Virus record (IMG/VR): IMGVR_UViG_3300012007_000008
Coordinates: 128,001 to 174,862 of that record
DNA from: a virus
Lineage: Duplodnaviria; Heunggongvirae; Uroviricota; Caudoviricetes
Strand: one strand, 5' to 3'
Length of the DNA stretch: 46,862 nt
Positions 1 to 22,916 of this stretch are shown here, in pieces; positions within the stretch are counted from its first letter, which is position 1, and each line of letters opens with the position of its first letter. Made by a program: the position numbers and the translations under genes. The notes under the pieces are model-generated. The model had not been told where the DNA came from. It saw only the letters and a program-made list of their open reading frames with translations, and searched no databases.

Positions 1-124
1 GAGCGGTAAGAATCAGCGGGTTATTCACCAGCTTCTTCTTGATAATCTCCTTATAGAAGATATTCTCGCGACCATTCTACTTCTTGTACTGGATGACATC
101 CTTGAGATTCTTGAAATTCTGCAT
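1..124 (-). CDS. 5' part of a virion morphogenesis gene, truncated by the window edge; one in-frame TAG (77-79)
   Basis: AAGGAGG RBS then ATG at 124; reads MQNFKNLKDVIQYKK*NGRENIFYKEIIKKKLVNNPLILTA through the TAG to the window end. Confidence 0.6.
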
Positions 125-137
125 ATTGGGCCTCCTT

Positions 138-1373
138 TCACATAAAGATTATGTCAAAGGATTCTTCACCCTGAACTTCAGAATCTTCGACAGTAGCGGT
201 ACAAGCCGCGATTATCCGCCGCCCGACGTATGAGTCATCTCCCAAGAACTTCACCTTGATCTTATTGTCTGTCACGCCAGGTTTGGTTTCTACCGGAGCC
301 TCAGTCCCATCGTCCATCCTGAACGACCAATTGTAAGACTGCGCCGGGATCTCTACCCCTTCCTCCGTAAAATATGTGGCAGTCAGCGTTTTGTACGCCC
401 CGCCGATCTTAAAGAGGGCAGTAGTAGAAGACACCACGACTGAGCCAAGCGGTACAATAGGTTCCTAAGATTCAGAATCATCTGTCTCAGGAGTTGCCGG
501 GAATTTGAACCAGTCCGCGTACATTCTCCAGTGATCTGGATCAGACTTGTCTATATAGTCGGTTTTGGGATTGAACGTATCCTGATAAAGCGTGAGCTGT
601 ACGACCCCTCTCGGAGTTGTATTCTCAACTTTAGAAATCTGCCAGGTAATAGGTACATCCATCGGCATACTCAAGATGACACGCTGATTATAGAAGATCT
701 CGTTCGATACACTGTTCCACGGAAGCCAAAACTTAGTTTGCATCTACATGACTGTGGTTTTGTCGAAACTGTAAATTCCCGAATTATATGACGACTGGGT
801 TCTCTGAGATCCCCACATTTTCCGCTTAAACCGACCCTCGGGTTTGTCTATCACCCAATCAAGCTGATAATTGCATCTGACAACGCCGAACTTCGGAAAC
901 TGGTTAGCCACATCCTCGTAAACAACCAGCCATTTCTGATAAACACCTCTGTCATCAGGAATGTCGACATATAAGCCAATCGGGTAACGGACACCGAAAC
1001 GCTTATATTCCCGGAAGTAATCCGGTACGATCGTCTGATTTTCAGGATCCTAGACCCCTTTATTCCAGTCTGACATAGTAAACTGAATGTAGTAATCCGG
1101 GTCATCCTTGGCCAACGACTTATAGTTCTTGATCAAGAACTTCAGCTTGACAGGAATTTTCGCAGAACCTTCTGGCGGGGCATAGTTCGCCCCATACTCA
1201 CATAGATCACTAGTAACCACATCGTCATGAAAATAGTCGTACAGGTAACAAAGCCGAGTTGTCACATCCAGATCAAATGTTTCATCCATGATCCGGTCGG
1301 CATCGGCCTTGATTTGCTTACCTACGGAAGCAGCCGTACCATAATAGCTATTCAACGCACTGAGATAAGCCAT
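138..1373 (-). CDS. Putative head-completion/neck protein (~411 aa), TAG-recoded
   Basis: ORFs 138-437, 465-743 and 1050-1379 share one frame and are separated only by TAG (465, 744, 1050); ends in TGA; lies downstream of the capsid gene. Function inferred from position. Confidence 0.6.
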
Positions 1374-1375
1374 GG

Positions 1376-1714
1376 TCAAACCACCTCCTCCTTCAGTTTC
1401 CCGATCTCTGCCCCAGCAGTGAGAATGCAGTTCCTATACGTCGGAAAGTCAAAATCCTCCCGCGCAAACTCATTCTTAGCAGATTCGAGCCAACTCATAC
1501 AACTGATTATTTCTGGCTGACATAGCAGTAGTTCATTCATCCCTGACAAGCGGCGGAGCAGATTCGTAAACGTCTTGTCAACATTTACCCCCGGGTAACT
1601 CGCGGCAGTTTCAGGATCCACAGCTAAGAGTAAGAAGAAAATAGAACTCCTAAGCCGTTTCTTTTCCTCCGCGATCTGTCCAGGCACAAATTCACCGCCG
1701 TACTTATGCTTCAT
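1376..1714 (-). CDS. Hypothetical virion-module protein (112 aa)
   Basis: Uninterrupted ORF; its ATG overlaps the TGA of the upstream gene (ATGA at 1711-1714). Confidence 0.7.
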   Translation of the reverse strand: MKHKYGGEFVPGQIAEEKKRLRSSIFFLLLAVDPETAASYPGVNVDKTFTNLLRRLSGMNELLLCQPEIISCMSWLESAKNEFAREDFDFPTYRNCILTAGAEIGKLKEEVV

Positions 1715-2172
1715 GACTACGAAGCCTCCACGGCAGCATTGTAGAACGTGTGATCCCTGATGAAGCGCTTCAGCTACACCTCACGCCGCTTAAGCTGTTG
1801 AAGGTTTATGTTAAGCGTATTCTTCAGGGCCTTTTCTTCTTTTCCACCAACGATATACGGACTGAGTGAGACAGAGTTATCCACCTGAGGATACATCCAC
1901 TCAATCGCCATCGCTTGAACGATCACGTCCTACACAAAAGCGTCCTCAGAAGCGGATTCGCCGTTGTTTATCCGCGTCCTGAGAACATAGTTGACTTCCT
2001 CGAAATCGTCATCCTGAGAGATAGAAGAGAAGAGTTTGCGGACTTCAGGTCGCGCCAACCCTCTCCTCAGATAATCTGCCAGGATAGATTTCCTGTCTTT
2101 ATTAGACATGGCTAATAGCGAAGGATCCTTTACGCGTGAGAGGAAGCTTCCGTAAATTTCGTTGTACTCCAT
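1711..2172 (-). CDS. Putative head-tail adaptor protein (153 aa), TAG-recoded
   Basis: ORF 1930-2172 continues through TAG at 1930, 1774 and 1717 to a TGA overlapping the next ATG; GGAGG-type RBS. Function from position only. Confidence 0.6.
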
Positions 2173-2188
2173 AGCTTCCTCCTTTCAG

Positions 2189-2875
2189 TTAGCTGAGGAA
2201 ATCCACGAGAACTGTGCCGGTAACATCGTCGATAATCTTCAGCTTGCTCACCGAAGGATAATTCTCGGCGTGAATCATGGAGATAGCTGTAAATTTGATG
2301 ATCTCGCGGATAGTCCTGTCCGCCGTGCGTAAGAACTTCTCAAAATCATCGTCCGACTTCTCGAACAGATCCTCCGGGTAATCAACCCCGATGAACGGCT
2401 TGTAGATATTACCGATGTCCCTTCTCCACTGGGACAGGAGATCCGGGTCTTCAATAAGAAGCTTCGGCCCAGTGATGATGTCCTGCTTTCTCCATGACTG
2501 AAGATCGCGGTAAGCAACATACTGTTCCGTTCCCCATCCCTCGAAGTAGTACGATCTCTGTTTGTCCATAGAGCTGATGTTCAGCTTCCACGGGCAGACA
2601 GACTTACACAGTATCTGATCGTCAGGAAGGAACTTCTTCTTTGAAACCGGGAGGGTGGCGGCCACATCAGGTTCAGACGCGGCCTTCTCATCGATCTTTG
2701 CCTATCCGATATAGACCTGTTTCTTCAGTTCCTCAAAATGTTTCTGTGCCACCGTGATCATGTCCTCGTCGGCATTCTGCATATGAGAGGAAACTTTGAA
2801 ACCCTGATCCTTCAGATAGGTGATGAGTTCCTTATTCTTGACGCCAAGCTCTTTAGATAAATCGTTAATTTTCAT
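2189..2875 (-). CDS. Protein following the major capsid gene (228 aa) with an N-terminal IF2_N-like domain; one TAG (2702)
   Basis: ATG at 2875 gives MKINDLSKELGVKNKELITYLKDQGFKVSSHMQN, resembling the N-terminal domain of initiation factor IF2; in frame with ORF 2189-2665. Confidence 0.65.
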
Positions 2876-2900
2876 ATCCTTTTAATCCCCTTTACTTCAA

Positions 2901-3995
2901 TTACTGAAGAAGAATCTCACCGAACAGCTCGTCTACGATGATACCAACACCCTGACAGAAAGCGATCAGGTGATCCTGGGTGTTATCCTGGATAGCGCCC
3001 TGCTGCGGATTCCTCTCGGTGTACTCAGTGACACCTTCAACAATGTACTTGATCGGCTTGAACTCACCATCATTCGGCATGATCATGATCTTGTTGTTGT
3101 TGAAGATGTTGGTACGAGTGTTGAGCTTGTTCATACGGTCAAGCGGCATAACATTGTAGCCCTCGTAATTGCCAAGGATCTGATAGTTGTGCCTGTCATC
3201 CTTCATCTGATTGGACCACAGCGAATACGGAACGGTGTTCTGAAGCTTCGCGATGGCAACCTTAGAACCAACAAGCGTGACATCCTTACCCGTCACGGAA
3301 CGAACAAGATCAATATGCTCGACGATAGCTTCGCGATCAGTGCCGTTGTCAGTAGTCGTACTCTGGATGATCATGTCAGACGGCAGGAACGTATCAAGGT
3401 TAGTGAACTCTTCATAGATCATCGCCTTGGTGTATTCCTCGATGGACTTCTCAGCGCGGGCAATCAGCTCGGTGAAGTCGATACGTCCAAGCATCATCTC
3501 GCGAACATTCGCGTATACAGCAATGTAAGCAAAGTCAGTATCAATACGATACGCTCTGCCGGGCTTCAGCTGCTGTCTCACAACGTCGGTGTGGTCATGT
3601 GCCCACTTCGAAACGATGAGTAGACTGTTATCCTTCACCCAGAATTCATTCATGTCACCCTCGGCAATGTTCTTCTGCTCAACCCAAGTCATGAAGAACG
3701 GATTAGTAATGCCGGACTGCATCTTGTCAGTAATGGTGTTCTCGATCAGAGAGTAGAGTTCGGGACCGTGAAGCCTCATGGCCTGACGTCTCTGCTGCGG
3801 GGTCGCGGTCTTGAAGTTAATTCCGAGAATGCGATCAAACTGAGTACGGAACATGTCGTTCGCCTAGTCATGACTGTACTTGACGTATACACCATTAGCG
3901 GCGTCATTCATGAGTTCCTGGAAAGCTTCAACGTTCTTTACGTCGTCATCAAACTTGCTGACCATGTAGTCAGAAAATACCAGAAGATTTCTCAT
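2901..3995 (-). CDS. Major capsid protein (364 aa), one TAG at codon 44
   Basis: ATG at 3995 after a strong RBS, in frame with ORF 2901-3854 via TAG 3864-3866 (KYSHD*ANDMFR); size and position after portal, protease and a ~200 aa gene match SPbeta YonB-type capsid order. Confidence 0.8.
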
Positions 3996-4020
3996 ATCTT
4001 TTCCCTCCTTTCTTCATTTA

Positions 4021-4635
4021 TTAAGAGATCTGCTTGTTCTGGACAGCCTGAATGTAGACCTTAGTGGTATACTCAAGGTTGTCAAAACCGAACTGATAGA
4101 TCTTACCGATAAAGCCGTAGGTAGCGGGATTAGCGGAAGCGACAGCCTTCCAGCCGCCGTTACCGTCAACTACAACATACTGGCCCTTCGCGAGCTTGTT
4201 TCCAGCGACGGAAGTGAAAGAATAATCAGCGATGCAGAAAATATCATAATCATCATCGGCGATCTCGTATGTCTTTACGTCCTTGCCGGCCTTGTTGTAG
4301 AAGAAGTGGCGCTCTTCCTGAGACTTGACAAGTGCATCCTTTACGATTGCAGGACTGCCTGTGATGGCGATCTTGTCACCAGCCTTAGCAATAGTTGCGT
4401 AGACCTCAGAAAGTCCATTTCCTGTTAGTTCACCGATCTTGACGGCGACTCCGTTATCCACATCAATCGGAACCAGCTTTGTTACAGCGCTAGCCCCTTC
4501 ACCTTCAGTTACTTCCTCGCAAACAAGCGCGTCCCAGATACGTCCACCGCCTGAGAACGTGCTACGAAGTCGACTAGATTCGAAGATTCCATGTCTATTC
4601 GCGGCTACAGCGGTTGCGTTAGTATAAATAGCCAT
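4021..4635 (-). CDS. Putative capsid-associated/decoration protein (204 aa)
   Basis: AGGAGG RBS before MAIYTNA; Gly/Ala-rich; sits between scaffold and capsid genes; no TAG. Confidence 0.6.
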   Translation of the reverse strand: MAIYTNATAVAANRHGIFESSRLRSTFSGGGRIWDALVCEEVTEGEGASAVTKLVPIDVDNGVAVKIGELTGNGLSEVYATIAKAGDKIAITGSPAIVKDALVKSQEERHFFYNKAGKDVKTYEIADDDYDIFCIADYSFTSVAGNKLAKGQYVVVDGNGGWKAVASANPATYGFIGKIYQFGFDNLEYTTKVYIQAVQNKQIS

Positions 4636-4668
4636 ATACTTATTCCTCCTTTTCATTTTTAAATACAT

Positions 4669-4695
4669 AAAAAGAGAGCGACCTAATCGCTCCCC
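4669..4695 (-). terminator. Intrinsic terminator-like hairpin
   Basis: GGGGAGCGATTAGGTCGCTCTC followed by a T run on the minus strand. Confidence 0.5.
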
Positions 4696-4707
4696 ATTCG
4701 TTCGTTA

Positions 4708-6408
4708 TTACCTCTTACTTCTATCTCTCAGCCCATCAAGGAAAGAGCTAGAAGACTCGTCCTTCTGAAGGAAGCCAAACATCTTCGGCTGCTTCTTCGA
4801 AGTGTCTTTACCCTAATCAGCCGCGAAACTCTGCTTCTTAGAAGGCTTGTCATCAAACTGAGCCGCAAAGGCCAGTTCACACTGAGTCTTCAGATCTTCC
4901 AGAGAATAATTCTCCTTATTCTCCCTCAGGGTCTTGAATTCCTCAGCTTCCTGATACTTCGCGTACTTCCCATCATTCAGGATCTCATCGCGCTTAGCGT
5001 TAAGTTCAGCCAACTCATACTTCGCAACCTTTTCCTGAAGAGAAGAATAGTTAGCCCTCATCTCATTCAGGGATGCCAGTTCATCGTCGGTCACGTATTC
5101 AGCATGAAGAGCGTAGCGCTCGCCATCCAAGTTTACGTTGTCGCCATCGACAGTGTACTTGGCTCCCCAGATCTGGTTTGACCAGAATCCTGAAGCGACG
5201 AACTTGCCGTCATATACCTTGTCGATGCAGTACCAGTCGTTGTCTTCCTCATCCCAACCAGAGATAAGGTTGTAGAGAGCGTAGCGGATGTCTTCATGGC
5301 TGATCTCAAAGTTCACGGAGAACTTAAGACCGTCGCGCTCGATTACACGGTTCAGAGAACGTTTCTTGCTGCCTGAATCGGTAGAAGAGTTGTCGTCATC
5401 GTCGCCATCGTCATCATCTTCATCGTCGTCACCGCTCGGCTCAGGGTCTGTCTGGTCGGGATCAGTTTGGTCATTGCCGCCGGTTTCTTCTCCGGTCTCA
5501 TCACCAGTCTCGCCGCCGGTTCCACCTTCACCTTCGCCATCAAACTGAGCGCCGTTCTCATTCAGATTCTCATTCTCTTCGTTAAGAGTTTTCTTCTTCA
5601 CTGTATCTTCCTCCTTCCCTTCATTATTTTTATTAAAGCTCTCGATTGTAGCCTTCAACCCGTCGAGAGATTCAATCAGAGTATTCATCTGATCTTCAGA
5701 GAAGGAAACTACAGGTTCTTCCTCTGAATAGGCAAAGTCTTTCAATTGAAGCTTTGAACCTACCATCCCTTCCTGAACAAATTCGCCCGTGTTAGGATTC
5801 TTACCTAAGAGGGTATATCCAGAAACTTCTACATCAGTCAGTTCAAGATATTTATCCTTTGCGTTATAAGAGCAAGCGTTTACTAAGAGTTCTACCGAAC
5901 CTTTAGTGCCACCTTCTCTTTCAATAATACTAGCAGCATGCGTATATTCTCTAGGGATAGCACATTCCGCTTCGAGATAATCTTTTCCGTTCTCGTCATC
6001 ATGAACAATCCGGGGTTCTTCGCTAGTGAAGCAACCAACCTGACGTTCTTGATATTCGACAGATCCGTCCTAATTGATGGTCATATCATGAGAAGTAAAC
6101 CATTCCAGTCCAGTTTCTGGATCAATCCAGAAATTAGCAAGAATAGGTTTATATTCGATAGTAGCCTTAGAATTCTCCGCTGCCTATTCAGTCACGCCCG
6201 ACCCATTTCTATTCCGAAATAAATGATATACACGGACAGTCCCAAATAACATTGTGTCAGTAGACTTGCTACTATTTTCCTCAAAGATAGCGGAAGAGCG
6301 GACAGCGATTTGGTATCCACTCTATTTTGCATCAAAATTGACGGAGTGATTATGGTCAACGAAAAAATAATAAAGATCATCCCAGGTCAGTATTTTCTTC
6401 CTCTGCAA
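4708..6408 (-). CDS. Prohead protease/scaffold fusion (566 aa), TAG-recoded
   Basis: TTG start after AGGAGGTG; single frame to TAA 4708 with TAG at 6322, 6184, 6070 and 4813; N-terminal NRNGS...KPILA and SVEL motifs, then an acidic linker and coiled-coil C-terminus; follows the portal. Confidence 0.75.
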
Positions 6409-6426
6409 CCAGATCACCTCCTTTAC

Positions 6427-6615
6427 TTAAAAATCAAGACGATTCGAGTATGTCGCGTTAGTAATATCTAACTCGTCATAAAGCTTCATGTCATTCAGGA
6501 ACGTTGCGGTTTTGCCGTCGTAGGAGAGAAGAGTAAACCCGAGCGATTCAAGCGTTTTCTTCGTACCCTCGTCCTGAGTCTTGATAAACTTCTGGTTCTT
6601 ATCTGTTTTATTCAT
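6427..6615 (-). CDS. Small hypothetical protein (62 aa)
   Basis: Start overlaps the portal stop (TAATG). Confidence 0.6.
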   Translation of the reverse strand: MNKTDKNQKFIKTQDEGTKKTLESLGFTLLSYDGKTATFLNDMKLYDELDITNATYSNRLDF

Positions 6616-8159
6616 TATTTATTCCCCTTATCCTCATTTTTACCGCTGTCGCGGGTTGATACGCCTTCAGGCGAAAGATCCCCTTCATCCTTCTCAGGGC
6701 GGCCATTTTTATTATCCGACTGGGTATAAGATGTTTGTAACGGATCCATATATTCCTGAATCTGAAGGATATCCTTCTCGAATAATAGTTTATTCTTCAA
6801 AGAGTACGGATCTGAGCCGAGAGCAATCAAGTAATCGGTTTTTGATCCGCCCAAAGTCGCTGCCTCCTTCTTCTCCGCTACATATTCATCGTGATTGTAG
6901 CGAGTAAGATCAAGAATCTCGAAATGCACATTCTCAGCAATATTCTTCTTGATATAGAAGTTGAACCAAGACTCGATCCGGCGAATCCAGATAGAGATCT
7001 TGCCAAGATCATTTGCAATACTGTACTTTATTCCAGAGGCATTTGAGGAATTTCCGCTACTTATGATTAGCCTGTTAATACCCGCATTAGCGAACAGGTT
7101 ATTCATGGCGTTGCCGAGTTCATCAGTATCCGCCGTAGAAGTAGACTTCTCAAAAGACACCACCTCAACATCACACGGCGTAGTACCGACTCCGACGTTA
7201 TCCGGGACAGCCTCTTCCTCCATAGCCTGGAAGTAGTTGAGCATATCCAAGGAGACCGCGAAGTCATCCACGTCCTCTGTATTCTTCAAGAACGGGATCT
7301 TGTTCAGGATCAGCTTGTAATTCTGAAGCTCGTTCTTATTCGCAATCAAAGTCTCTGTGTCCAAAAGCTGGAGCAGAGACTTAAATAAAGGTAGGAAGTA
7401 GGGGAGCGGCAAATAGAACTCGTCGCTTGTCGTCGCAATGAAACAAGCGGTTAATTCCGGTGTGAGCTGAAACCACTGATAATCACGCCCCTGGTTCTTA
7501 TAGGCGTTGTACCCATCAACAAAGCACGGATCCCAGAGGCCCGTGCCTTCTTCATCACCGTCTATGACAAAGTCTTTGTTGTTTCCCTGATCAAAATAGG
7601 AGGCGTCGAAGTAGACAATCCACTGACCTTCGGGCGTCTTACCGTAAATCCGGCAGTACTTGATGTCCAGCGGCATCAGGAACATGCCATTTTCTTCGGA
7701 GTTATACATGAACCCGACGAACATTCCGTCCCTGAGCATCTGAAAGATAATGTCGTTCAGTTCCCCGGGGAGATTAAACCCATGTAGGAGAGTGGCGACT
7801 GTATTGTAGTTCTTCAACTACTTGGCACTCATTCCCTTCGACAAGTCGACGAGAGGAGTGAGATTGTACCTATACTCGTACATAGAAGCGTAGTACTGAA
7901 GCATCAGCTTGTATGGCATGGACACACGAGTCAGAAACCGCGAGATTTCGCGGATGTTGTCAAGGTTGTTCAGCGGCGACTGTGTGTAGTCATCCAACGT
8001 CTCACGCGTATACTGAGTATACGTCTTCGTGAGCACCTTTGCCGGATTTCGCTGAAGGATCCTGTCAGATATACTCTGGAAGAAAGAACGATCCATTTCC
8101 TGAGCGCGTTCCCTCTTCAGTTTGTTACTGCTATTGCCGAAAAGATTAAAAATACCCGT
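6615..8159 (-). CDS. Portal protein (~514 aa), one TAG (7818)
   Basis: ORFs 6615-7817 and 7818-8168 are contiguous in frame; immediately downstream of the terminase; C-terminal PLQTSYTQS...GRP motif typical of SPbeta-type portals. Start uncertain: ACG 8159 is best spaced from the RBS, GTG 8168 lies inside it. Confidence 0.8.
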
Positions 8160-8175
8160 AGCGATCACCTCCTTC

Positions 8176-9633
8176 TTACGAATATCTTGTTACTTTCACC
8201 GGGCGGCGAATGCGTAACATATCTTTGTAGTTGCTCTCAATCTTGCGAGCTGGTATTATCTGTTTCCTACGTTCCAACATGAGGGCAAAACACGCCATTG
8301 CGGACACATAGGCGCGGTCATCATGCATACGTGAAGCCTTTTCTGGGATCAATTCAAATGAATCCTTACCAGACTATCTCCGTTTCCTTACCATGTTCGT
8401 AAGTTCCTATTTGAGAGCGTCCATATTAGCGAGAGCTATCTTATCTTCCCAATCGAGCTTGATAGTTTTCGTTTCAAGCTCTGACGTCAACTCCTACTTG
8501 AGCCGCTTTTCAAAATCTGCCTCGTTGAGTTTCTATTTCTTCAGTTTCTCTACTAGTTTGGCCTTCTTCTTAGCGGTCTCTTCTTCATCGATGTCGAACA
8601 CCGTCAAATGATCTTTATTGTCATAAGGCGCAGTAAAAGACACCTTATCCTGATTCATTAACTCTATCATGGATTCAAACATTTCAGATTTATATTGAGA
8701 CGGGGAAATAAGACGAAGCTTATCTACAGCGTTCGGGAATTTCTTCACGTATTCAGAAGAGTATTCCTTATCAATCAAACCCCGATGAACAATTCCTTCA
8801 GAATCAGTCCAGTCTGACATAAGAAAGTCGGCTATATTTACGCCGCCTCCACCAGACCCGGCATCAACAAAAACGCCTATGATATTCCCGTAAGCATCGG
8901 CCCCGCCGTTATAAGCGAGAATTACCTTCTTCAGATATTCAATCTGATCAGGCGTTTGCATAGGCGACTTAAGCCTTTTACCTACATCAACAAGATTGAT
9001 ACAATTGACAAAACGCATTCGTTTGTCTATGGCGCCATCAATTCTGATAAAATCGTATATCTACGCTACTAGAATCACAGAATTGTCGCGACTTCGGGCC
9101 GGGTCATAACAGATCACAAACTTTTTATCTCCAGTGTCGTTGTATAGAAGAGGTTTTCTGGTCTCTTCATTACGAATGATAACTGAGCGTTTGATGATCG
9201 CATCGGTTCCGGCATCTGTCGTGAATTCACAGTAATACTCACGACGGGCTTTGTCAGGATTGGTTCTAATCTCACTCTAAATAATCGAAGATTCGAAGAG
9301 CGGATTCATTAATTTACCGTGAATAGTCGGATGAAGCGGAATATCACACGTTATCACCGCCACGAAATATCTTTTATCACCCATGATCATTCTCTTGGAA
9401 AATTCCCTGAAAAAGCTATAAAACTTCGTATCTGTTGAAGAAGCAGAAGATATGTAAAATAATTGGTTAGGAATTTCTCTTGGAAGAGTGCGAAGTCTAA
9501 CGGAGTCAATCATATTTCCGTTTCCGTCACGTCCTGATTTAAACGATTTGTTAACGATAGCGAAAGCGCCGTAGACGTTCATCATTTCCTAAGATAAGAA
9601 ACCACACTAATCGAAAATTACGTTACCACGAGC
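8176..9633 (-). CDS. terL: Terminase large subunit, exon 2 (Walker B plus nuclease domain), 8 in-frame TAG
   Basis: ARGNVIFD*CGF (Walker B), YISSAS, YDPARSRDNS, VDAGSGGGG and HDDRAY motifs; open to TAA 8176 if TAG is sense. Confidence 0.9.
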
Positions 9634-11064
9634 CAATTTGTTATCCTTCAGGCTTTTTATCCTGAAGCTCTTGCAGTTTTAGTTCCTGCAACGTTCGGCG
9701 TACCTTTTCACCTACAGCGTTATCTGTTTAGGGGCGGGGACTCTTGGGAAGATTATATTCTGTTTCCAGCTTCACTTCCTACGCTCTGCGTGTGACCAAG
9801 CTTTTATACTTAGCCTTCCACTCGGATTGGCATTTCAGCCTTCCCGATTTCTTCCCCGCTTCAATAAACCAGTCATTTCTAACTGGCGAGGCCCTCGTGG
9901 TCATTATTATTCAAACTACTTAAATAACGCTTATATTTACGATCTAAGTAAATATTAGCATCATCATAAATCCAATGAAGATATTTTTGCGTAAATCCAT
10001 GTCCCGCAATCTGTAAACGGTAGCAATCCACAAATTGATCTTTTGCTGGTTTATGGAGGCAAATATAGGAATTAATTCCATTCTCATATAATATTGCCCT
10101 TAATTCCTCTAAGAAAACTTTAGATACAGAATAAAAACAACACTCAGCTACTTTATAATGAAAATAAATACACCCATCACCATCAAAAAATCCTCGCACA
10201 AAATCTTTATATAAATGTTTAGGAATTTGAGGCAAAGTCATAGTATATGTTTTGTCTCTGGTAACGCCAATTTTTTCAAGATCTTTCATCATTTTCTGAG
10301 AAAATATTCTGAGACAACATAATTCGTGCAGAGTATCATATTTACTTAATGAACATGGCCTCCACCTTGTTGTAATTCTATAATTACCGGCAATTGATTT
10401 ATTAAATTTTTTCAAATGGCTATAATCTTTAATGGCTAATTCTATGCCGACAACACCACTATGCGTAGTATCATTTTCATTTATCCAACCGTCTGCGTAA
10501 ATAAAACCAAGCCAATAAGCTTTTTCTTCTGTATCAATATTATGAAAGAAATCATAATCACAATAATAAGGGGATTTTTTTAACCCAAGTTTACTTCCTT
10601 TTATATGGATAGAATTCTATGTTCTCCCCATCATTTCTGCGATTTCAGGATTAGAGAAATCATAATATACAGATTTTAAGAATTCTATTTCTTCTTCTGT
10701 CCAGGAGTCTTTTTTAACAAGATTTAAGTCAAAACACTTAGCTCGAATATTACTCTCTGTTCTTCCTAATTTCTCGGCAATGTCAGAATATAACATGCTT
10801 TCATAGTTTTCTTTTAAGAAATTTACCTAATATTCTGTCCAACGTGTTTCTAACTTTTTTGTAAAACCTAATTGGCTCAATTTTGTAGATATAGTTCCTT
10901 TTGTTCTTCCTAATTTTTCTGCCATCTCCGCATGAGTCATTGTCATGTAGTTTTCTTCTAAAAATTTAATATCTTCATCTGTAAATCTTTTAATTTTCAT
11001 TTATACTTTCCTTTCTTCATATAGAAATTTAATTATATAAACAAAATAATTATAAGTCGATTCG
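9634..11064 (-). mobile_element. Group I intron in terL carrying a homing endonuclease
   Basis: Removing it joins KKRG|ARGNVIFD in frame; 5' exon ends in U and intron ends in G; guide sequence ACCACGAGGGCCTC (9888-9901) pairs with the 5' exon (GAGGU, U-G pair) and the 3' exon (CUCGUGGU); core-like motifs AAATCGGGAA, AATCCGAG, CAGAGCGTA and AAGGTACGCC at 9634-9870. Confidence 0.85.
9873..11000 (-). CDS. Intron-encoded double-motif LAGLIDADG homing endonuclease with three N-terminal HTH-like repeats (375 aa), 3 TAG
   Basis: AYWLGFIYADG and DFVRGFFDGDG motifs; C-terminal YLDRKY; ATG 11000 with RBS; TAG at 10827, 10617 and 9879; TGA at 9873. Confidence 0.85.
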
Positions 11065-12979: not shown

Positions 12980-13019
12980 TGAAGTGGCACCTCCTTTTAA
13001 TCCTTATTTCTTTTATTAA

Positions 13020-13091
13020 CGGGGGCTATAGGATTCGAACCTATACATATGGGGACCAAAGCCCCATGCCTTACCTTTTGGCGAAGCCCCT
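13020..13091 (-). tRNA. trnQ: tRNA-Gln(UUG)
   Basis: Cloverleaf; anticodon arm TGGGG-CTTTGGT-CCCCA; T arm ATAGG-TTCGAAT-CCTAT; G2-C71, G3-C70, G73 and unpaired 1-72. Confidence 0.9.
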
Positions 13092-13110
13092 ATTAGCTAA
13101 TTAAACAACA

Positions 13111-13183
13111 TCACCCCACTCGGATTCGAACCGAGGATTCCTGATTTAGAGTCAGGCGACTTAGACCGCTTGTCGATGGGGCG
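13111..13183 (-). tRNA. Amber suppressor tRNA (anticodon CUA) with a tRNA-Glu-like body
   Basis: CGCCCCATCGACAAGCGGTCTAAGTCGCCTGA-CTCTAAA-TCAGGAATCCTCGGTTCGAATCCGAGTGGGGTGA folds as a complete cloverleaf; anticodon at 13147-13149. Confidence 0.93.
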
Positions 13184-13625: not shown

Positions 13626-13901
13626 TTAAGGATTGATAAAATCCTTCACTTCGTCTGAAAACTTTATCATTGGGATCATCTTTTTACCAACCTAGATTTT
13701 TTCACCGGTTACAGGATGAATAATTGTTCTTGGATTTTGAGTATGAGCCCAAAATGTGCCAAGCCCGGCCATTTTAACTTCTCCGTCTCGACGCATTCCT
13801 ACCTTGATCCCTTCAATGATTGCGTCGATATAGAGGCGAGCCTGTTTCTTTGATCCCCCAAGCTGATTAACAATCTAAGTAGCCAGATCTTTCTTAGTCA
13901 T
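13626..13901 (-). CDS. hup: HU family DNA-binding protein (91 aa), 2 TAG
   Basis: MTKKDLAT*IVNQLGGSKKQA...GEVKMAGLGTF...IIHPVTGEKI*VGKKMIPMIKFS matches the HU/IHF pattern; missing from the standard-code ORF track. Confidence 0.85.
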
Positions 13902-14469
13902 CGCATCCCTCACATAAGAATCTTTCTAAAAGTTCTATCACGAACTCTGTGTCTTCAGAGGAACACTCAACGGTTACTTCTGATCCGTCTGCGGATTGAC
14001 GATGAAAACAAAGGCTATGGCGAGATGGAATATTAAGTGTATCCTCCTCGTTAACATCCTCACACTCATCCTTATATTCACAGGACGTACAATCTTCATT
14101 GTCAAACTCAACAATATATGTGATTTCCTGGTCCAGCTTTTTAATTGCTTCAAAGTGAATGTCGTTTCTAATCATAACAACAGTATCATTATCAGCATGC
14201 AAGTCGAGGTATGCGTTATTGTTATAAAATTTCTCTACGTAAACTTCGCCGTCCGCCACAGTGACCAAATACTCTCTATCATAATTGTCATAAACAGCGT
14301 TATGGAGTTCACATTCCGTCAATATACAATCAGTGTTTTTGATCATGCAGTTTACAAACTCAGTTGTCTACAGATAGTCCCCTATAACATAAACCTGTTC
14401 AACTGAGTGACTTAATTCCTCAACCTAGAAGGTGAAATTGTCCATATTTCTAAAAAATAATTTATCCAT
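13894..14469 (-). CDS. Acidic hypothetical protein (191 aa), 2 TAG
   Basis: ORF 13894-14346 extends through TAG 14368 and 14425 to ATG 14469 with an RBS. Confidence 0.65.
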
Positions 14470-14512
14470 TTTTCAATCCTCTTATTTAAGCGAGATAAAT
14501 CGCGATTTTTTC

Positions 14513-14541
14513 TTTAAAAATATTCTGTCATTCCCTATAAT
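14513..14541 (+). promoter_or_regulatory. Sigma-A-like promoter
   Basis: TTTAAA-17 nt-TATAAT upstream of a small plus-strand gene. Confidence 0.5.
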
Positions 14542-14614
14542 AAAAGACGTCACGGGTATGCTATGTAACCGCGACGTCTCATAGTCATAGCGCACCTGAG
14601 AAAGGAGGTATCCA

Positions 14615-14758
14615 ATGAGCACCCTACTAATCATTGGACTCGCAGCCCTTCTCTCTGTCCCTACGGCGAAAGTGATCGTCTCTAAGATGATCATGGCCGA
14701 AAAGTAGGTTCCAGCAGAGAAAAGGATTGCGGCTGTCCTCAAACTCTGGGGACGGTAA
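14615..14758 (+). CDS. Small hydrophobic peptide (30 aa if TAG=stop, 47 aa if read through), type I toxin-like
   Basis: AAAGGAGG RBS; MSTLLIIGLAALLSVPTAKVIVSKMIMAEK*VPAEKRIAAVLKLWGR; antisense to surrounding genes; hairpin at ~14774-14806. Confidence 0.55.
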
Positions 14759-14806
14759 TCCCTGTATCAGCATAGCTCCGTATGATAGGCTTGGCGTACG
14801 GAGCTA

Positions 14807-15982
14807 TCACAATTCAACCGGATAATAAGCCTCTACGCCGTCTTCATCGCAGACGCATACCATCTGTGACGGCCTTCCGGTCAATCTCTTTTCTATAGTG
14901 AACGAATCCCCTGAACCACAGAGAGATCCGCCCCGGATCATCTTTACACCGTTACTCTCTGAGACTGAGCACGTATGAAGATGTCCGTATAACACTGCGT
15001 ACGGCACATGCCCAATCGCCATGCAAAGCTTCGACAATCCGGCGGGAGAGTAGTTATCATAGTCTCCATGGACTCCAATATATTCGTTTCCTCTGATGTA
15101 AATCTGAGAGATCCCAGTGTCATAATAGTTCGTCCTGTAGGCGAAATTATTCACGTTATTGAGCCGCAAAGAAACTGTCCACGCGATCAGGTCGTCTAAG
15201 CGCTCATTATGAATTGCATCTTCCTTACGATCTATTCTGGTATGATTACCGGAAACCGAGTGAAAATTTACGCACTCAAAATTTCGACAAAGCACATAAC
15301 AGAAATTTGTAATCAGATCAGACGCAATTTTAATCTGATCTATTACATTCTCTCTGTTACTGACCTGAATTGACTTGTGAATACTGCCGCTGATGATATC
15401 ACCCTGAAGAGACACATAGCAATTCTGACACTCATGTCTTCTGGCGATTTCAAGCACATGGCCTAAAAGCTTCGAAAGACGCTCTTTTGCCACATCTGAA
15501 TCATAATATCCGAAGTTGTTGTCAAACTTAGCTCCGATGTGAAAGTCGGAGAGTATAATCAGAATGTCTCTTTCTCCTGACCTGTTTAAAGGTTCAACGT
15601 TCGGGAATTCAAATCGACTGCTTTCCAACATCCTATCCGCCAGATAATCAAGCTTCTGATCAACTCTGGCGGAAAGATAGTTTTGTTTATTCCAGGCGTT
15701 ACGTTCATCTCGGAACTTAATTTTTTCCGCCTCAAACTCGCGGATCTTCTCATCAAGTTCGGCCATCTGTTTCTCTGTGTCACCTAACGCAGAACGATTG
15801 GCTTTATAAAACTTCGTAAAGTTATTGTATTCTTTCCGGTACTTGCTTTCTCCGTAGTTTTTCCCGGTTAACTCATTCAGAACCTAAGCGACATCATTCC
15901 AGGAGCCGATTAACTCCTTGTCTTTACAAATTCGAAAGATCAGTTCTTCGTCAGATTCTCCATTAAGTCGTTGATACTGCAT
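14807..15982 (-). CDS. Calcineurin-like metallophosphoesterase, SPbeta YonJ-like (391 aa), one TAG at codon 33
   Basis: SDFHIG, QGDII, SGNHTR, VHGD and GHLH motifs; ATG 15982 in frame via TAG 15884. Confidence 0.8.
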
Positions 15983-15985
15983 GAA

Positions 15986-16183
15986 TTAATCCTCTATATC
16001 ATGTTCCTCAATGCTCTTCAATGTTACGCTGAAGGTAATAGGAACTCCGTTGAACTTCTTCATGGCTTCAAGAATATCAAGCTCTCCGTCGTCTGTAATA
16101 ATTTCTCCTCGCTCGGCGTCGTAATCTCCGACGACCTTAAGTGTGGTGTTAGTTACAGTCTTAAAATCGATTGCTTTAGCCAT
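15986..16183 (-). CDS. YonK-like small protein (65 aa)
   Basis: MAKAIDFK...KKFNGVPITFSV after an AAGGAG RBS; directly upstream of the YonJ-like gene, as in SPbeta. Confidence 0.5.
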   Translation of the reverse strand: MAKAIDFKTVTNTTLKVVGDYDAERGEIITDDGELDILEAMKKFNGVPITFSVTLKSIEEHDIED

Positions 16184-16196
16184 ATCCTTTAACTCC

Positions 16197-16862
16197 TTAT
16201 TTTTTATTAAAAATCTCATCGAGAGATTTTATCTTCTTTGAACAAAGACCTTTTTCAACTGCTTCATCGGCCGAGATATACCATTCATTAGTAAAGTTCT
16301 CATTGAATTCTTCCTCGGATATATTAGTCCGAGACAGAACAAACTCGCCGAGGCGGTTAATCTGTTCCTGATAATTCAAGATTGCAGAAACGACGGCGTC
16401 ATACGATCCGCCAAAACTTCCACTTCCGCGATGCAAAAGGAACTCCCCATTTGGGAATGTATATCTCTTATGACAAGCGAGAAAAATAAAACATGCTGCC
16501 GAATACGCAATCCCGCAGTTAACTCCGATTACAGGAGTCTTGCTAAGTGTAATAGTGTCCACAAGAGAGTTATTAATATCCAAATCTCCGCCTGGAGAGT
16601 GGAAGAGGATAGTGATCGGCACCCTTTCCTTAACTGGCTTTCCCAAATCCTCTCGATTCCAATTCATAATGAATTTTTCGAGTTCAAGAGTGATGTCATC
16701 AACCTCCGAATCGATCCAAATAGTCCTATTATCAAGATTCTGGTAGTAGCTTAGCAGCGCCGGATCAGGTAACGACAAGTTCTCTGCATTACTCGCAGAA
16801 GAACTTGTTGTATAGAAAGAAATCTAATCAGCTCGTTTCTTAATGTCTTTAGTGTTAATCAT
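16197..16862 (-). CDS. clpP: ClpP-family protease (221 aa), one TAG at codon 13
   Basis: HSPGGD, AYSAA (catalytic Ser), LLH (catalytic His) and WYISADEAVEKGL motifs; ATG 16862 in frame via TAG 16824. Confidence 0.85.
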
Positions 16863-16877
16863 ATATATACCCCGCCA

Positions 16878-17303
16878 TTATACAGCCTTATCAACAGGCA
16901 CCTTCAGCACCTTTTCATCTCCACGCCTAGTTTCCTTCATAATCTCAGAGATGGCGGAATCAAGAGCATCCGTCTTATTAAAATAAAAGACCGTGCGATC
17001 ACTATTATTCTTATCAGGGTTGATGTCTGTCGGCCTAAACCCTCGTCTGATCAACTGGCGGGCAACAAGAGTGGAACTTACGACCTTCCTCTGAGTATCA
17101 ACTTCGTCATCAGTCTTCTTTGTTGCTTCGTCAAGATCCCTCGACAGCTTATCATTCTTCTAAAAAACAAAGACCGTCTTATTCCTATTCCCCTTATTCG
17201 GCTCGATATCAATGACATCATTTCCCATTCCAATCAATCTCTTGGCAACACGCTGCGAAAAAATTAACTTTCCAATTACTTCTTTGTTATTCTGATTATC
17301 CAT
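16878..17303 (-). CDS. Small protein with two tandem DUF5659-like repeats (141 aa), one TAG (17160)
   Basis: Repeat 1 IFSQRVAKRLIGMGNDVIDIEPNKGNRNKTVFVF*KNDKL; repeat 2 VSSTLVARQLIRRGFRPTDINPDKNNSDRTVFYFNKTDAL; AAGGAG RBS. Confidence 0.65.
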
Positions 17304-17376
17304 AATTCTTCTCCTTTAATCCTTTTTTTTTGATATTAATAAAGGTGATGCATAGCACCACCAAGTTAACATTATA

Positions 17377-17547: not shown

Positions 17548-17666
17548 AAATTATAATCATCCTTTTAAAATAGTAAGGAGCATTCCGATTAAAACACTCC
17601 CCCATATTACAAACGATATTTTTTTATTCAAAATATACGGACAACTCCGCATAAAATATGTGATAT

Positions 17667-20429
17667 TCAGGTTCGATGCTGTGAGTTTCCCTTTACGAAA
17701 TTTGACAAAAACAGATCTTTATCCATCCTATATAGGCAGTTTAATATCTGCCTTGAGTATTTTACGTTATTTCTCTGGTACACTTTATTCACTTTATTTG
17801 TGCTTCCGTCTAAATCCAATGCAGTTTCTATCAAACGATTGATAGTAACCGGATTCTTGATTCTGATTTCTCGTAACTACTTCGTAACTTTCCCCATAGT
17901 TCTAACAATCTCAGCAACCATCTCTTCGGGGCTGTCTACTCCTCCCATTAGCTGGCGGCGAAGAGTGTCACTATAAATTCTAATAATCCGAAGAATCTTC
18001 TATGACATATGCCTATTTGTATGCCCCTTCATTTTTATAAAAAACTATTCTGTCGGAATCCCTGGCTATCTTGTCATGCCCTGAATCTTATTTAGATGAT
18101 CCTGTAACCAGTTCATCGGACAGACGAATTCATTACTAATTCTATTCTTGAGCTTATTCTTGCCTTCTTTGACGATTTCATACGGAAGTTCTTCACCGTT
18201 TTTTGTATGAGGAACGTCGCGGGTGTACTTCATAAATAACGGAAAGTCTTTTTTTTGAGTGTGGACTTTACCAGAATTGTCTCTATACTGAATTTCTTTG
18301 ACCATGCATGGTTCACGGAGAATTCGTTTGATTTCTTCAAGACCGTCTTCTATTTCGTAGACTCTTTTACATCCATCTATGATTATTTGAGCAAGTACAC
18401 TTAGAATAATAAAATACTAATAATAACTTTGCATATCCTGTTTATTAGGATCTTGTTTTGCTAATTCTGTCCAAAAATAACTCATACAAAGTTGAGCGGC
18501 GTTAGAACTCCAGCCGATTCCCAACTGGGAATGAGCCATCATGTTGTCCATTCGCGCATAATCAGCCATGGTATTGTTGTATACCAAACCTGATTCTTTG
18601 AGGCTATTTACTATAGTAGGATATTTCTCATAGCAAATCTTCGCAGCTTTCACCAAAGTGGGATGATTGGACACAAAATTGAAGTCCGAATCAAAATCTT
18701 CGCCATTCATCCTAGACTGAATGTCTGTTTCTATGCAGTTTACCGCCATAATATTGGAGCTAAATTCGAAATACTTTTCCATTAGTTCATGTTTTATATT
18801 AAGGAAATACCCTAAGTTGTTGGGAGAGTTATGAGGGTTGCGTATCCCTAAAAGATACTCGCCATCCTAAAATCTTGGTGTATAACACTCGATTACACCT
18901 GATCTCGGCCTCAATGTTGGATCTTTTTGCCAATCTTCGCCAACAGAATAGAGTAGTAGAGCATAAGGATTTCCGCAAACCGTCAGATTATCCCCCTCAA
19001 CAAAGATTTTTCCGTTTCTCAATCTGAACACATATTGGTTGATAATTCCTCGTTTTTCCCGCCTAAACCATCTAGAATTAGCAATTTCAGGGTTATGCCT
19101 ATACAGATCCGCCATCATTTCGTAATGATTGATCTCGTTGGCGTTTTCTCGTAGGAATTCTTCAAACTTATCAGGATTTCTCTTTAATTCCTCGACATAT
19201 TCAATACTTGTCCTTGCTACCTCACCGATTTCATCTTTGTTTAACGGAAGAGTATTAACCATCTGGTATGACATCTGTTGGTATCTACCGAGTTTTGACG
19301 TGTGATCAGTCTTGACAATGCCCCATTTACATCCGTCGGCGCGAATTTTCTCGCACCAATAGTCGTAAGCAGCGGTGAGAGTACCGCCCATCTGAGACAA
19401 GAACTTTTTCCACTTGATGGAATTATCCGTAGTGATCATCTGGATATCTTTTAACCGATGCGAATACCCGAACATATCCTGAACTTCGTAAGTTTCGTAG
19501 TCGTTTCCCGTCTTTTCACACCAATCCCGGAAGAATTTCTGGATACGTGTCCTGAATGCGCAAGCCTTGAACATATGATTCCTCAGTAAGCACATCCCGT
19601 TGACCCAAAGCGGGAGAGAATCAGTGTCGATCAGCGCCATTCCATCCCATAAAGTGTTCTTTACCTACGTTTCCTCGTGCTAAACGACACATTTTTTCGC
19701 TGTTTCACCATTCGGTTTGACATAATCCTCGGCTTTTACGACTTCGGCGACCGTTTTGAAAAAAGAATCCTGGTCTTTTAGGATCAAGATGTTCTCTACC
19801 GGAATGCTGAGCAATCCGACTATTGTGGACGTCGTGAGAGGGGCATAAGCGCTCATTTCAACGATTTTCGCGCCTTTTTCGGGCAATTTTATGCCCATCG
19901 TGAGCCAATTATGCGCCGTTTCGTATAATTCCTCCCGGATAAACATCACTTCGCCGACTTTCGCCTTTGCCGGAGTCCTAAAAAGCATGACATAGTGGAT
20001 TTTGTCAGCATATTCGATGTTGCCTTCTGAATCTCGGTATTCATACACGACATCAACGCCTTCTTCGTAAAACTTCGTCCGAATCTATTCACGGGTTAAA
20101 GCGACATATTTTTCCTTGTTCTCATCAACTTTGTCCAGAATTCGCTGAATACTGGCGCGTTCTTCATCAGATTTTGCTTTCTCAAAAAGTTTTTCTACAC
20201 GTTTTCTCTACTCTTTATAGGATTTTGATCCGAAGTCAAATCGGAGGCAAATTACATCTCTTGTAGATTCTTCGTTGTAAACCTAAAGCCCATGTTCTCT
20301 CATGTAGTAGTAGAAGAGGGAATTGTTTAACATCGCATCCGTATAACTCACGTAATCCCTAATTCCGATATTATGCTAATAGAGCATTCCGGCAGAATAA
20401 TTCTTTATTCGGACACCGTATTCACTAAT
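17667..20429 (-). CDS. YonO-like single-subunit RNA polymerase of the RdRP-like two-barrel family (~920 aa), 12 TAG
   Basis: ORFs 18066-18305, 18417-18782, 18867-19640 and 19680-20048 share one frame joined only by TAG; NTLWDG, RNPHN and catalytic RMNGEDFDSD motifs; upstream of HU/YonK/YonJ/terminase as in SPbeta; likely ATT start after GGAGG. Confidence 0.8.
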
Positions 20430-20446
20430 AACAAACCGCCTCCTTC

Positions 20447-20710: not shown

Positions 20711-20735
20711 AATTATTCCCCCTTTTATGAATACT

Positions 20736-21120
20736 AATCTCGGCTGCTCCTCAAAAGACTGAAATTTAGACAACCTTTCCAATTTGAGAATTATGCTCTT
20801 AGAATACTAACAGCACAGATCTCCATAATAATTGTTATAAATAATATGCAGCTACTCCGAGCTGCGCTAATATCGAAACGTATTAAGATTGCTGAGTACC
20901 GATTTTTATGAGTGTTGAAAGATAGAGGTTTTGATTTACGTATAACAGGCCAAATGTCGTATATTCTCATCAAAATTTTACCTTGTTATCCTTACCCAAT
21001 ATTTGATGTTCCTAAACATACACACTGTTATTGCCACAGCTGGCGGCGTCTCCATACTTCGTACGCCCGAAGCGGTCAGCTATTGTCTACGTTTCAGTCC
21101 TTTGCGGAACAGCCGAGATT
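20736..21120 (-). ncRNA. Candidate ~385-nt structured RNA closed by a long terminal stem
   Basis: 29-nt inverted repeat (20736-20764 / 21092-21120) with 3 differences, two of them G-U pairs on the minus strand; no convincing ORF inside. Confidence 0.5.
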
Positions 21121-21129
21121 GTTCACTAA

Positions 21130-21750
21130 TTATGCGGTAAGAATGTCCTCAAGTGAGTCCTCTTCAGACCAGCGCGGATCGAAATTTACCTGAATGTTGA
21201 GATTGTATTTTTCGATCTCTTTTGAGGTTTCCTTCATCTCGCGCTTAAACCTATTCGCGATTCCTTTAATCTTATTCCGGTCAAAGTTAATTTTCTTTAC
21301 CGTAGTTATCTTATATACATAAGGCGTCTGCTTTCCGTCGATCTCATTCATCATGTAAGCAGTTCCGGAGCCTTCTGACTCCTGAGTCCTCATTCCGGCA
21401 ATACGATCGAGAAACGAAGCAAACACTCTCTTGTCTTTATTTGCCATACACGCGGCATCGATCTGCATGTCTGCCTGAGCCTTTGCCCGGGCAATAGCCT
21501 TTGCGAGGTTTTCTCTTTCTTCAATAACGGCGAGACCAAAATCGACAATCTGATCAGGCGTGATCTTAAGATCGGCAAGCGGATTCTTAGCAGTCTCAAT
21601 TTCATCAGACGCGGCCTTATTCGCATCTGATTTGTGGTGCGTTTTAACCGTGGTGGTGACGAAAGCATCTTCCGCTAAGTGCAATTGAATTTCGTCAAGC
21701 AAATCATGTAAAAAATTCTGATAGCGACAAGCATCATTAAAATCCATCAT
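21130..21750 (-). CDS. Helical hypothetical protein (206 aa)
   Basis: AAGGAG RBS; uninterrupted ORF without TAG. Confidence 0.75.
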   Translation of the reverse strand: MMDFNDACRYQNFLHDLLDEIQLHLAEDAFVTTTVKTHHKSDANKAASDEIETAKNPLADLKITPDQIVDFGLAVIEERENLAKAIARAKAQADMQIDAACMANKDKRVFASFLDRIAGMRTQESEGSGTAYMMNEIDGKQTPYVYKITTVKKINFDRNKIKGIANRFKREMKETSKEIEKYNLNIQVNFDPRWSEEDSLEDILTA

Positions 21751-21792
21751 AATTACACTCCTTTATATTGAACTGTAGTTTGTTAGTTGTTA

Positions 21793-22740
21793 TTACATCT
21801 CGTCCGCCACTCGAGCGACCTCTGAGCGGAAGATATTCGGAAGTTCAACTTCTCCGTAAAATTTATATCCTCTGAAAACTTCGGACATCCGTCTCATTCC
21901 GTTATTGCTTCCGGCGTACTGTAAACGATCAACCTGTGTCATATAGTCACCGTCTATAATCACCGGAGTATCTTCTCCTATTCGCTGTAGAGCCAGTTTT
22001 AACAGACTAATTGAGAAATTCTGCGCTTCTGTGATATACACAGCTACGGGGCCATCATAGCCAGACGTATCAACCCCTCTAACATCAGCCATAGGGAGAA
22101 GAATCAATTTTTCGTCATACATTAGTTTCTTGACCCCGAATTCGCCTCCAAGCTTAGACTTAAGAAAATTTCCTACTTGGCTGTCTAAAAGCTTCTCATC
22201 TTTGGAGCCGGGGTAAAAACCAAGTTGACAGGCATCACCTACGGATACAGGATTTGCGAAAATAATTATCTTCTCAATCTTATGCTTTTCAAGCATAGCC
22301 ATTAAGCAACCAATCGATAGATAACTTTTTCCGCTCCCTGGCTTACCTTTAATCATTGTGACTTGGTTCGTCATAATAGAATCAAGCGCCATTTTTTGAT
22401 ATATATCTCCGTTATAGGGCTTAACCTGTCCAAAAAATTGAGACTTGACAGTCGGTGTTTTACACAAAACGTTTCGAGTTCCGTCCCATTTATATATTTC
22501 CTTATTACCAGATGTCTGATTTGTAATCACAACATATTGATTCGTCAATAGATTAAAAACGTTCTGCTCTGGGTTCTCAAAAAATTCCGCTAATTGTTCT
22601 TCTGAAAAATCCGCATCAACCCAACCGGTGTAATTGTCATTTTGCGTTTCCAGTTCTCTTTGATTAGGAATCCTGTATATCAGTCCCTACTTTTGAAAGT
22701 GGCGGACTAGATCCTAAGTGTTTATTCCATATTTATTCAT
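21793..22740 (-). CDS. phoH: PhoH-family ATPase (315 aa), TAG at codons 9 and 18
   Basis: GKPGSGKS, LGFYPG, TEAQN, RIGEDT, DGD..QVD and IFRS motifs; ATG 22740 in frame via TAG 22714 and 22687. Confidence 0.85.
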
Positions 22741-22916
22741 TCTTTATCTACCTCAATACTTCTCAAACGTTCTCTTTCCTAGTATTCTTTTCTGCAAAGC
22801 TAGTTGAAAATCTAAGCTTTTATCAGATACGGAAGAGTAGTCCCTGGCAGATCAAATTGGGACAGTGTAATAAGTCCACTAAATTTTCTCCTGTTTGTAT
22901 AATTCTCTATTTCCAT
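22737..22916 (-). CDS. Small hypothetical protein (59 aa), 3 TAG
   Basis: Reading through TAG gives a frame ending in TGA that overlaps the phoH ATG (ATGA). Confidence 0.45.

Follow-up and report, generated by a model that had tools for sequence, protein, structure and literature searches.

A phage lineage carrying in-frame TAG at glutamate positions together with a CUA-anticodon tRNA of glutamate type

Introduction

Reassignment of the stop codon TAG to a sense codon is best described for gut phages assigned to genetic code 15, among which crAss-like, Lak, Agate, Sapphire, Garnet and Topaz phages are named (10.1101/2021.08.26.457843; PMC9523058). In the available text of the main survey, by Borges et al., glutamine (Gln, Q) was the best match for TAG "in most cases", and phages with a code unlike that of their host showed TAG-to-Gln and TGA-to-Trp changes only (10.1101/2021.08.26.457843); Peters et al. 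reported Gln by mass spectrometry in two crAss-like phages (PMC9523058), and code 15 was assigned by coding density in a further study (PMC13037316). The present work concerns a linear viral contig of 174,862 bases (b) from a tailed phage (IMG/VR record IMGVR_UViG_3300012007_000008, hereafter G000; estimated to be 88% complete), the last 46,862 b of which (the window, to which coordinates refer unless stated otherwise) carry in-frame TAG codons at glutamate (Glu, E) positions as well as a tRNA with the anticodon CUA. As far as the code-15 phages are portrayed in these sources, G000 resembles them in using TAG as a sense codon chiefly within structural genes and lysis genes, in its phage-borne CUA tRNA, in its presumed Firmicutes-type hosts, in having close relatives with different codes and, as is usual among them, in yielding no phage synthetase or release factor; it is unlike them in the residue at TAG, which is Glu, not Gln. 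The system is stop-codon recoding as in gut phages, but to Glu.

In Blastocrithidia, too, TAG stands for glutamate. Among ciliates, the accessible text of PMC10553269 describes UAG as Glu and UAA as Lys in Oligohymenophorea sp. PL0344, and both UAA and UAG as Glu in the peritrich code; these organisms are similar to G000 in their reading of UAG and in their tRNA-Glu-derived CUA suppressors, but they are eukaryotic, recoded genome-wide and reassign UAA as well, whereas G000 keeps TAA as a stop and is a virus whose bacterial host is presumed to use the standard code. In the archaeal pyrrolysine code, TAG is likewise reassigned in a prokaryotic setting via a CUA tRNA (10.1101/2024.09.30.615893; PMC13695967); unlike in that system, the tRNA of G000 folds as a canonical cloverleaf with G18G19 and with two bases separating the acceptor stem from the D stem. 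Calls of TAA/TAG-to-glutamate in archaeal assemblies were put down to contamination in the text available from 10.64898/2026.04.02.715157. A literature search brought up phages with TAG=Gln and ciliates with TAG=Glu and, in keeping with what an original prediction made from the DNA letters had supposed, no published TAG=Glu phage; the search took in little of the subscription literature, so that absence from print is unproven.

Results and Discussion

Extent of in-frame TAG codons

The gene content of G000 includes a portal protein, terminase, integrases, DNA polymerase III alpha and lysins. Relatives with 60-79% terminase identity sit in Clostridia assemblies (Eubacteriaceae, Blautia, Ruminococcus, Acetatifactor), and near-identical contigs (97-99%) stem from sequencing runs labelled gut or sheep metagenome. 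At positions 1-22916, 61 in-frame TAGs were counted across 18 called minus-strand open reading frames (ORFs) and three more in a 59-aa ORF, i.e. the 64 that had been claimed for the minus-strand genes; those at 1717 and 9879 stand one codon ahead of TAA/TGA and could be true stops. For the whole genome, a greedy gene caller yielded 176 genes with 333 TAGs, a few of which fall within N-terminal extensions of doubtful reality or directly ahead of a stop. With TAG as sense, the coverage of 1-22916 by long ORFs (at least 150 aa) rose from 0.50 under code 11 to 0.865, and minus-strand coverage of genome positions 105-120 kb rose from 0.00-0.43 to 1.00; TGA or TAA as sense codon (0.70 in the former interval) was rejected, since less coding coverage was restored than by TAG. 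This code-by-code comparison bears out that the frames are broken by TAG alone with no other stop interrupting them, and the coding density expected from TAG as sense is indeed recovered; both ATGA overlaps of the original prediction, at 1711-1714 and at 22737-22740, were found again.

The minus strand of G000 holds 10.2 TAGs per 1000 codons and the plus strand 1.6. The recoded codons are concentrated in late genes; no TAG occurs in the genes for DNA polymerase, helicase and primase, and a few plus-strand genes of the replication region also hold conserved TAGs. More than half of the genome total (183 TAGs) lies in one 6353-codon gene, likely the tape measure (G000:C1:101488-120549), the orthologue of which in the related phage G001 contains 83 TAGs in 6813 codons.

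Residues opposite the TAG codons

The read-through proteins were aligned with homologues from 96 related loci, of which 10 TAG-recoded loci were removed and 86 standard-code loci kept; gap-free columns with at least four identities among the ten neighbours were used, and at least three homologue residues were required for the 39 TAG columns. The residues found in these columns (E.37, D.15, K.11, N.07, Q.06) follow the profile of GAA/GAG, unlike that of CAA/CAG, in the same alignments (control codons: GAA, E.42, D.12, K.10; CAG, Q.39), and the highly conserved TAG columns were E in 9/15 and Q in 1/15 cases. A second test drew on 172 standard-code loci; the homologues of each gene were dereplicated at 90%, and 73 columns in 19 genes were scored. 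Here E ranked best by likelihood, with D at -24 nats and Q at -33 nats, under an emission table learned from the very alignments tested; E was returned in 1999 of 2000 gene bootstraps, equal-size draws for nine sense codons were called correctly 1000 times out of 1000 each, and the likelihood of an E/Q mixture was maximal at 100% E.

The most telling single columns belong to the terminase and to an ERCC4 nuclease encoded outside the window. The terminase gene is arranged as follows:

8176..9633, minus strand: terminase large subunit, 3′ exon (phrog_2)
9607 (Walker B), 9589, 9277, 9061, 8533, 8494, 8407 and 8374, minus strand: the eight TAGs of the terminase 3′ exon
9634..11064, minus strand: insertion of 1431 b in the terminase gene, probably a group I intron (preceded by U, ending in G)
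11065..11748, minus strand: terminase 5′ exon, three TAGs (two columns: E 74/79 and E 78/79)

The TAG that follows VIFD in the Walker B motif (9607-9609), where the original prediction had argued for Glu, faces E in 78/78 homologues of a redundant set. The insertion lies just ahead of this motif; precisely its 1431 b are missing from the contigs of runs X2 and X4, which show the uninterrupted allele, the contig of run X7 has it, the joined exons form an open frame running into Walker B, and an Rfam search of the insertion gave no match. In the ERCC4 nuclease, the DTR-TAG column is E in 81/81 homologues, and the other three TAG columns show E in 62/67 residues, E 44 versus Q 13, and a mixture of K/E/Q; a search of this protein against PDB returned no match.

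Part of the local contexts that had been read as Glu held up, namely ALK-TAG-EL (E 78/78), FNV-TAG-LLD (E 78/79) and IN-TAG-DGS (E 3/4), whereas RF-TAG-DGE did not (N5, A2, D1, S1 in standard-code homologues); for VFVF-TAG-K, no standard-code homologue was aligned. As to two further sites, the HU site falls in a variable column (E, P, K and R in solved structures, Ile in G001, Lys in G002, the sister phage of G000), and GRT-TAG-NSI of the endonuclease repeat faces Tyr in two homologues. As a whole, Glu is the commonest residue in the tabulated columns and Gln is not favoured, and the central claim of glutamate instead of glutamine came out the same way in every comparative test (columns, likelihood, sister phage, ERCC4). 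Judged from these alignments, Glu is almost certainly the dominant residue at TAG. TAG is thus carried in frame at glutamate positions and very likely translated as Glu, probably by the phage's own CUA tRNA, with TAA and TGA staying stops.

The sister phage as internal control

The same pipeline called E for G001 and Q for the loci L076 (of phage G002), L091 and L094; because it calls Gln for the latter three, it is not biased to Glu. Over 8,661 codons aligned between G000 and G002, the TAGs of G000 face E at 35 and Q at 0 of 66 sites, and those of G002 face Q at 35 and E at 4 of 61 sites. Against the standard-code phage G009, G000 TAGs face E 20 and Q 1 times of 44, and G002 TAGs Q 21 and E 3 times of 36. 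In a tree obtained by a quick method with Shimodaira-Hasegawa-like approximate likelihood ratio test (SH-aLRT) support only, G002 is the sister of G000 (SH-aLRT 99), beside standard-code phages; G001 was merged into G000 at 90%, and the placement of the long branches L082 and L090 is uncertain.

Because just two sites are TAG in both G000 and G002, the two phages would appear to have captured TAG separately. A Gln-to-Glu switch from a Gln-coded ancestor is disfavoured by this low number and by the conserved-Gln columns, which are seldom GAA, GAG or TAG in G000 (one each). The CUA tRNAs of the Gln-coded loci (L076:7259-7350 and L091:13991-14082) have an unusual 23-nt variable insert, G73 and a body unlike that of the G000 tRNA; a Ser/Leu reading of these 92-nt tRNAs was rejected, their TAG columns being Gln. 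Two sister phages that give one codon different meanings, and that carry a suppressor tRNA apiece, would constitute a natural experiment, in which it can be tested directly how codon capture picks an amino acid.

The CUA tRNA

Two tRNA genes adjoin each other within the window:

13111..13183, minus strand: suppressor tRNA, anticodon CUA, Glu-type body (ARAGORN; Rfam tRNA 57.5 bits; the cloverleaf is the minimum free energy fold)
13020..13091, minus strand: tRNA-Gln(UUG), Gln-type ends (unpaired A1.C72, G73; ARAGORN; Rfam)

The CUA tRNA, unmentioned in the original prediction, is located within the recoded arm and inside 1-22916. It possesses C1-G72, G2.U71, A73, a long D arm of 17 nt and a 4-nt variable loop, and has no U1-A72. 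In a comparison set of 394 distinct phage tRNAs from related loci (32 Glu, 19 Gln), A73 was present in 30/32 and a 4-nt variable loop in 29/32 tRNA-Glu, while tRNA-Gln had G73 in 18/19 and G1-C72 or C1-G72 in no case. A naive-Bayes classifier blind to the anticodon assigned the CUA tRNA to Glu (0.978); on leaving one out, 29/32 Glu were called right and zero Gln were called Glu. According to the part of PMC9976931 at hand, the determinants of glutamyl-tRNA synthetase (GluRS) include U11-A24, U13.G22, A46, U34 and C36 as well as the absence of residue 47, and amidotransferases need U1-A72. The G001 suppressor combines the acceptor stem of the G000 CUA tRNA with U11-A24, U13.G22 and A46.

Pyrrolysine was rejected as the inserted residue: the ARAGORN label "Pyl" derives from the anticodon alone, the cloverleaf is canonical and the TAG columns are Glu; the Pfam matches of the 138/176 G000 proteins scanned included no PylRS family. 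A promoter scan upstream of the CUA tRNA remained at chance level.

Two observations concern tRNA genes of related loci. The standard-code relative L008 contains a tRNA-Trp body with the anticodon CUA (L008:7782-7857), which may reflect a newly arisen suppressor mutation or else an error, and L081:6476-7529 (G001 52428-53607) holds clustered tRNA-like genes that resemble one another in their acceptor stems and have aberrant anticodon arms.

Proposed decoding and alternative explanations

According to the scheme that we propose, the CUA tRNA of the phage would decode TAG as Glu. Its charging would fall to the host GluRS, because no phage synthetase was found: a dedicated check and the Pfam scan of 138/176 proteins revealed neither a phage-borne aminoacyl-tRNA synthetase nor a release factor. 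The paired C1-G72 and A73 may keep glutaminyl-tRNA synthetase (GlnRS) and amidotransferase off the tRNA, as the tRNA comparison and the available text of PMC9976931 suggest. From the distribution of TAG, late proteins bearing the codon would be made only once the CUA tRNA outcompetes host release factor 1 (RF1), which would time late expression in a manner proposed for code-15 phages (10.1101/2021.08.26.457843, in the text available); if the protein encoded at 17667-20387 is a YonO-like polymerase, the CUA tRNA would gate late transcription too.

Several points weigh against this reading. The support is conservation throughout, from which the reading at the level of peptides and of charging is inferred. 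One TAG column is Q in 70/70 homologues and another in 66/78, and others are R, K, I or D (the non-Glu scatter occurs at about the same rate at GAA and GAG); the loci L114 and L115 are ambiguous (Q.21 versus E.18-.20), and L089, L090 and L092 provide too few TAG columns (3-8). The tRNA classifier is small and redundant, six non-Glu tRNAs were miscalled Glu, and two Q-coded suppressors were not called Gln. Furthermore, the CUA tRNA is without the E. coli Glu determinants U34, C36, U11-A24 and U13.G22 (as given in the accessible part of PMC9976931); it has A11-U24, seen in just 3/32 phage tRNA-Glu, and A13.A22. No RF-1-family or tRNA-synt_1c gene was found in the 88%-complete record. One aligned GluRS from a relative-bearing host keeps Arg at the position of residue 358 in the Thermus thermophilus enzyme, which we take to read C36; charging by the host GluRS remains the most probable route, although this Arg leaves the acceptance of an A36 tRNA unexplained at the anticodon.

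Among the alternatives, a reading of TAG as glutamine (code 15) has a precedent in the other recoded gut phages (10.1101/2021.08.26.457843; PMC9523058, as far as accessible), is used by the sister phage G002 and agrees with the two Q-majority columns; it is nevertheless highly improbable, being 33 nats below Glu, matched by none of the 66 G000 TAG sites when compared with G002, and bound to place Gln at the Walker B residue and the DTRE position of the ERCC4 nuclease, where every homologue has E (78/78 and 81/81). Mixed decoding, i.e. mostly Glu with a sizeable share of Gln, since U35 amber tRNAs attract GlnRS and conservation records the dominant residue alone, is unlikely, although GlnRS and GatB occur in 5/5 bacterial genomes holding relatives and 4/55 TAG sites that differ from G001 face Gln. 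An amber tRNA-Glu of E. coli inserts some Gln. Against a sizeable Gln share in G000 stand the site-level mixture likelihood, which peaks at 100% E and is about 2 nats lower by 80% (a test of sites, not of molecules), and the CUA tRNA itself, which is without G73 and without a weak 1-72 pair.

The host might itself read TAG as Glu, with the phage merely following its code. TAG ends 2/47 long plus-strand ORFs versus 25/125 in the standard-code phage G009, and the conserved TAGs in plus-strand replication-region genes would also fit; this explanation is quite unlikely, however, as TAG use is six times lower on the early strand, the phage brings its own CUA tRNA, six relatives within bacterial assemblies have zero in-frame TAG, and the tRNA motif was not found in a sample of 401 genomes of Clostridia. 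Sequencing errors, or the nonsense mutations of a phage in decay, to which a linear, incomplete metagenomic contig might lend itself, are vanishingly improbable as the source of the TAGs. TAG alone breaks the frames, 183 TAGs stand in one otherwise open frame of 6353 codons, and G001, at 70% protein identity, has TAG in common with G000 at 31/86 aligned TAG sites. Moreover, 8/8 TAG codons of the terminase 3′ exon are unaltered in contigs of runs X2, X4 and X6 from three other studies, which over 8360-9640 show 38 other differences and zero at these codons (pieces of the X4 contig span all eight; run X1, a possible source of the G000 record, was left out). The site sharing with G001 and the contigs of other studies already refute errors and decay.

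A second lineage and spread of the recoding

A tRNA-motif scan led to G006, a complete phage of 142,127 b with 409 TAGs, the portal protein of which is 23.5% identical to that of G000. Compared with 41 standard-code relatives, its 74 TAG columns were E.61 and Q.08, and the conserved columns E in 30/32. Among the 79 related loci of G006, 35 are TAG-recoded, and E was the top residue in 35/35 of these (0.45-0.77; some near-duplicates); three members of the family (L307, L308, L309) are TGA-recoded. In a tRNA pattern scan of 4 viral and 11 metagenome stretches, a CUA tRNA was called in L125, L132, L136 and L138 alone, the remaining stretches having matched through other anticodon loops. The tRNAs of the metagenome contigs L132, L136 and L138 are of the same type as the G000 CUA tRNA. 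For the TAG columns of L132 and L136, there were no homologues within the comparison set; the L138 sigma factor has E opposite 3/3 TAGs in two of the three PDB alignments shown and E, E, P in the third. L138 also contains two different CUA tRNAs side by side (L138:1093-1274), adjoining this sigma-70 gene with its three in-frame TAGs.

It is conceivable, though still somewhat doubtful as a whole, that TAG=Glu with TAA/TGA stops represents a distinct and widespread phage code hidden under "code 15", which would be determined by CUA tRNAs with a Glu body, a mobile family shared by at least two distant lineages of Clostridia phages, would have originated independently of the sister's TAG=Gln and, in G000, would gate the whole late programme, the last because 12 TAGs must be read to make the candidate late RNA polymerase itself. 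TAG=Glu would break the rule of the main survey (Borges et al., in its available text) that phages reassign TAG to Gln alone, and with it the explanation that GlnRS and TrpRS alone can be repurposed. Annotation pipelines assuming code 15 insert Gln and would mistranslate such genomes at catalytic residues; the entry for the G000 ERCC4 nuclease in a public protein collection has Gln at 4/4 TAG sites, including the invariant E column. Natural Glu-inserting amber suppressors would, moreover, be useful reagents.

Other genes of the window

The remaining features at 1-22916 are:

138..6417, minus strand: head-module genes (phrog_5251, 3853, 5329, 4088, 4147, 3313), 12 TAGs in 5/7 genes
6615..8168, minus strand: portal protein (phrog_2739), one TAG
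9873..11000, minus strand: LAGLIDADG homing endonuclease with helix-turn-helix repeats, carried by the terminase insertion, three TAGs
11657..12979, minus strand: conserved gene upstream of the terminase (phrog_3314), 12 TAGs
13626..17303, minus strand: genes for HU, a protein of no assigned function, exonuclease, ClpP-like protease and DUF5659, seven TAGs
17667..20387, minus strand: 906-aa protein (phrog_8308), candidate single-chain (YonO-like) RNA polymerase, 12 TAGs
21793..22740, minus strand: PhoH-like protein, two TAGs
22737..22916, minus strand: 59-aa ORF, three TAGs, ending in an ATGA overlap

The 906-aa protein gave weak matches (24-36%) to phage genes annotated as RNA-dependent RNA polymerase and none to SPbeta, Pfam or NCBIfam; its size is similar to that of YonO, described as a late-gene polymerase in the available text of PMC5467207. 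The terminase found no match among GenBank phages, and NCBIfam searches with four G000 proteins likewise gave none.

A group I intron was recognized by Rfam in the anaerobic ribonucleotide reductase gene (G000 26594-26850; L098:9594-9850), near which a GIY-YIG nuclease with five TAGs is located. Three large plus-strand genes at window positions 34269-40912 are alike in size and sequence style and are apparent paralogues with zero Pfam matches. A Tad8 Thoeris inhibitor and an IS605 TnpB are encoded at G000 34136-34357 and 46930-48123. Genes of RNA-repair/modification type (kinase-HD, two RNA ligases, Thg1, HAD_SAK_2 and cysteine desulfurase) are found at window positions 23366-25517 and at G000 32875-33681, 36550-37467, 48335-48796 and 53590-54696.

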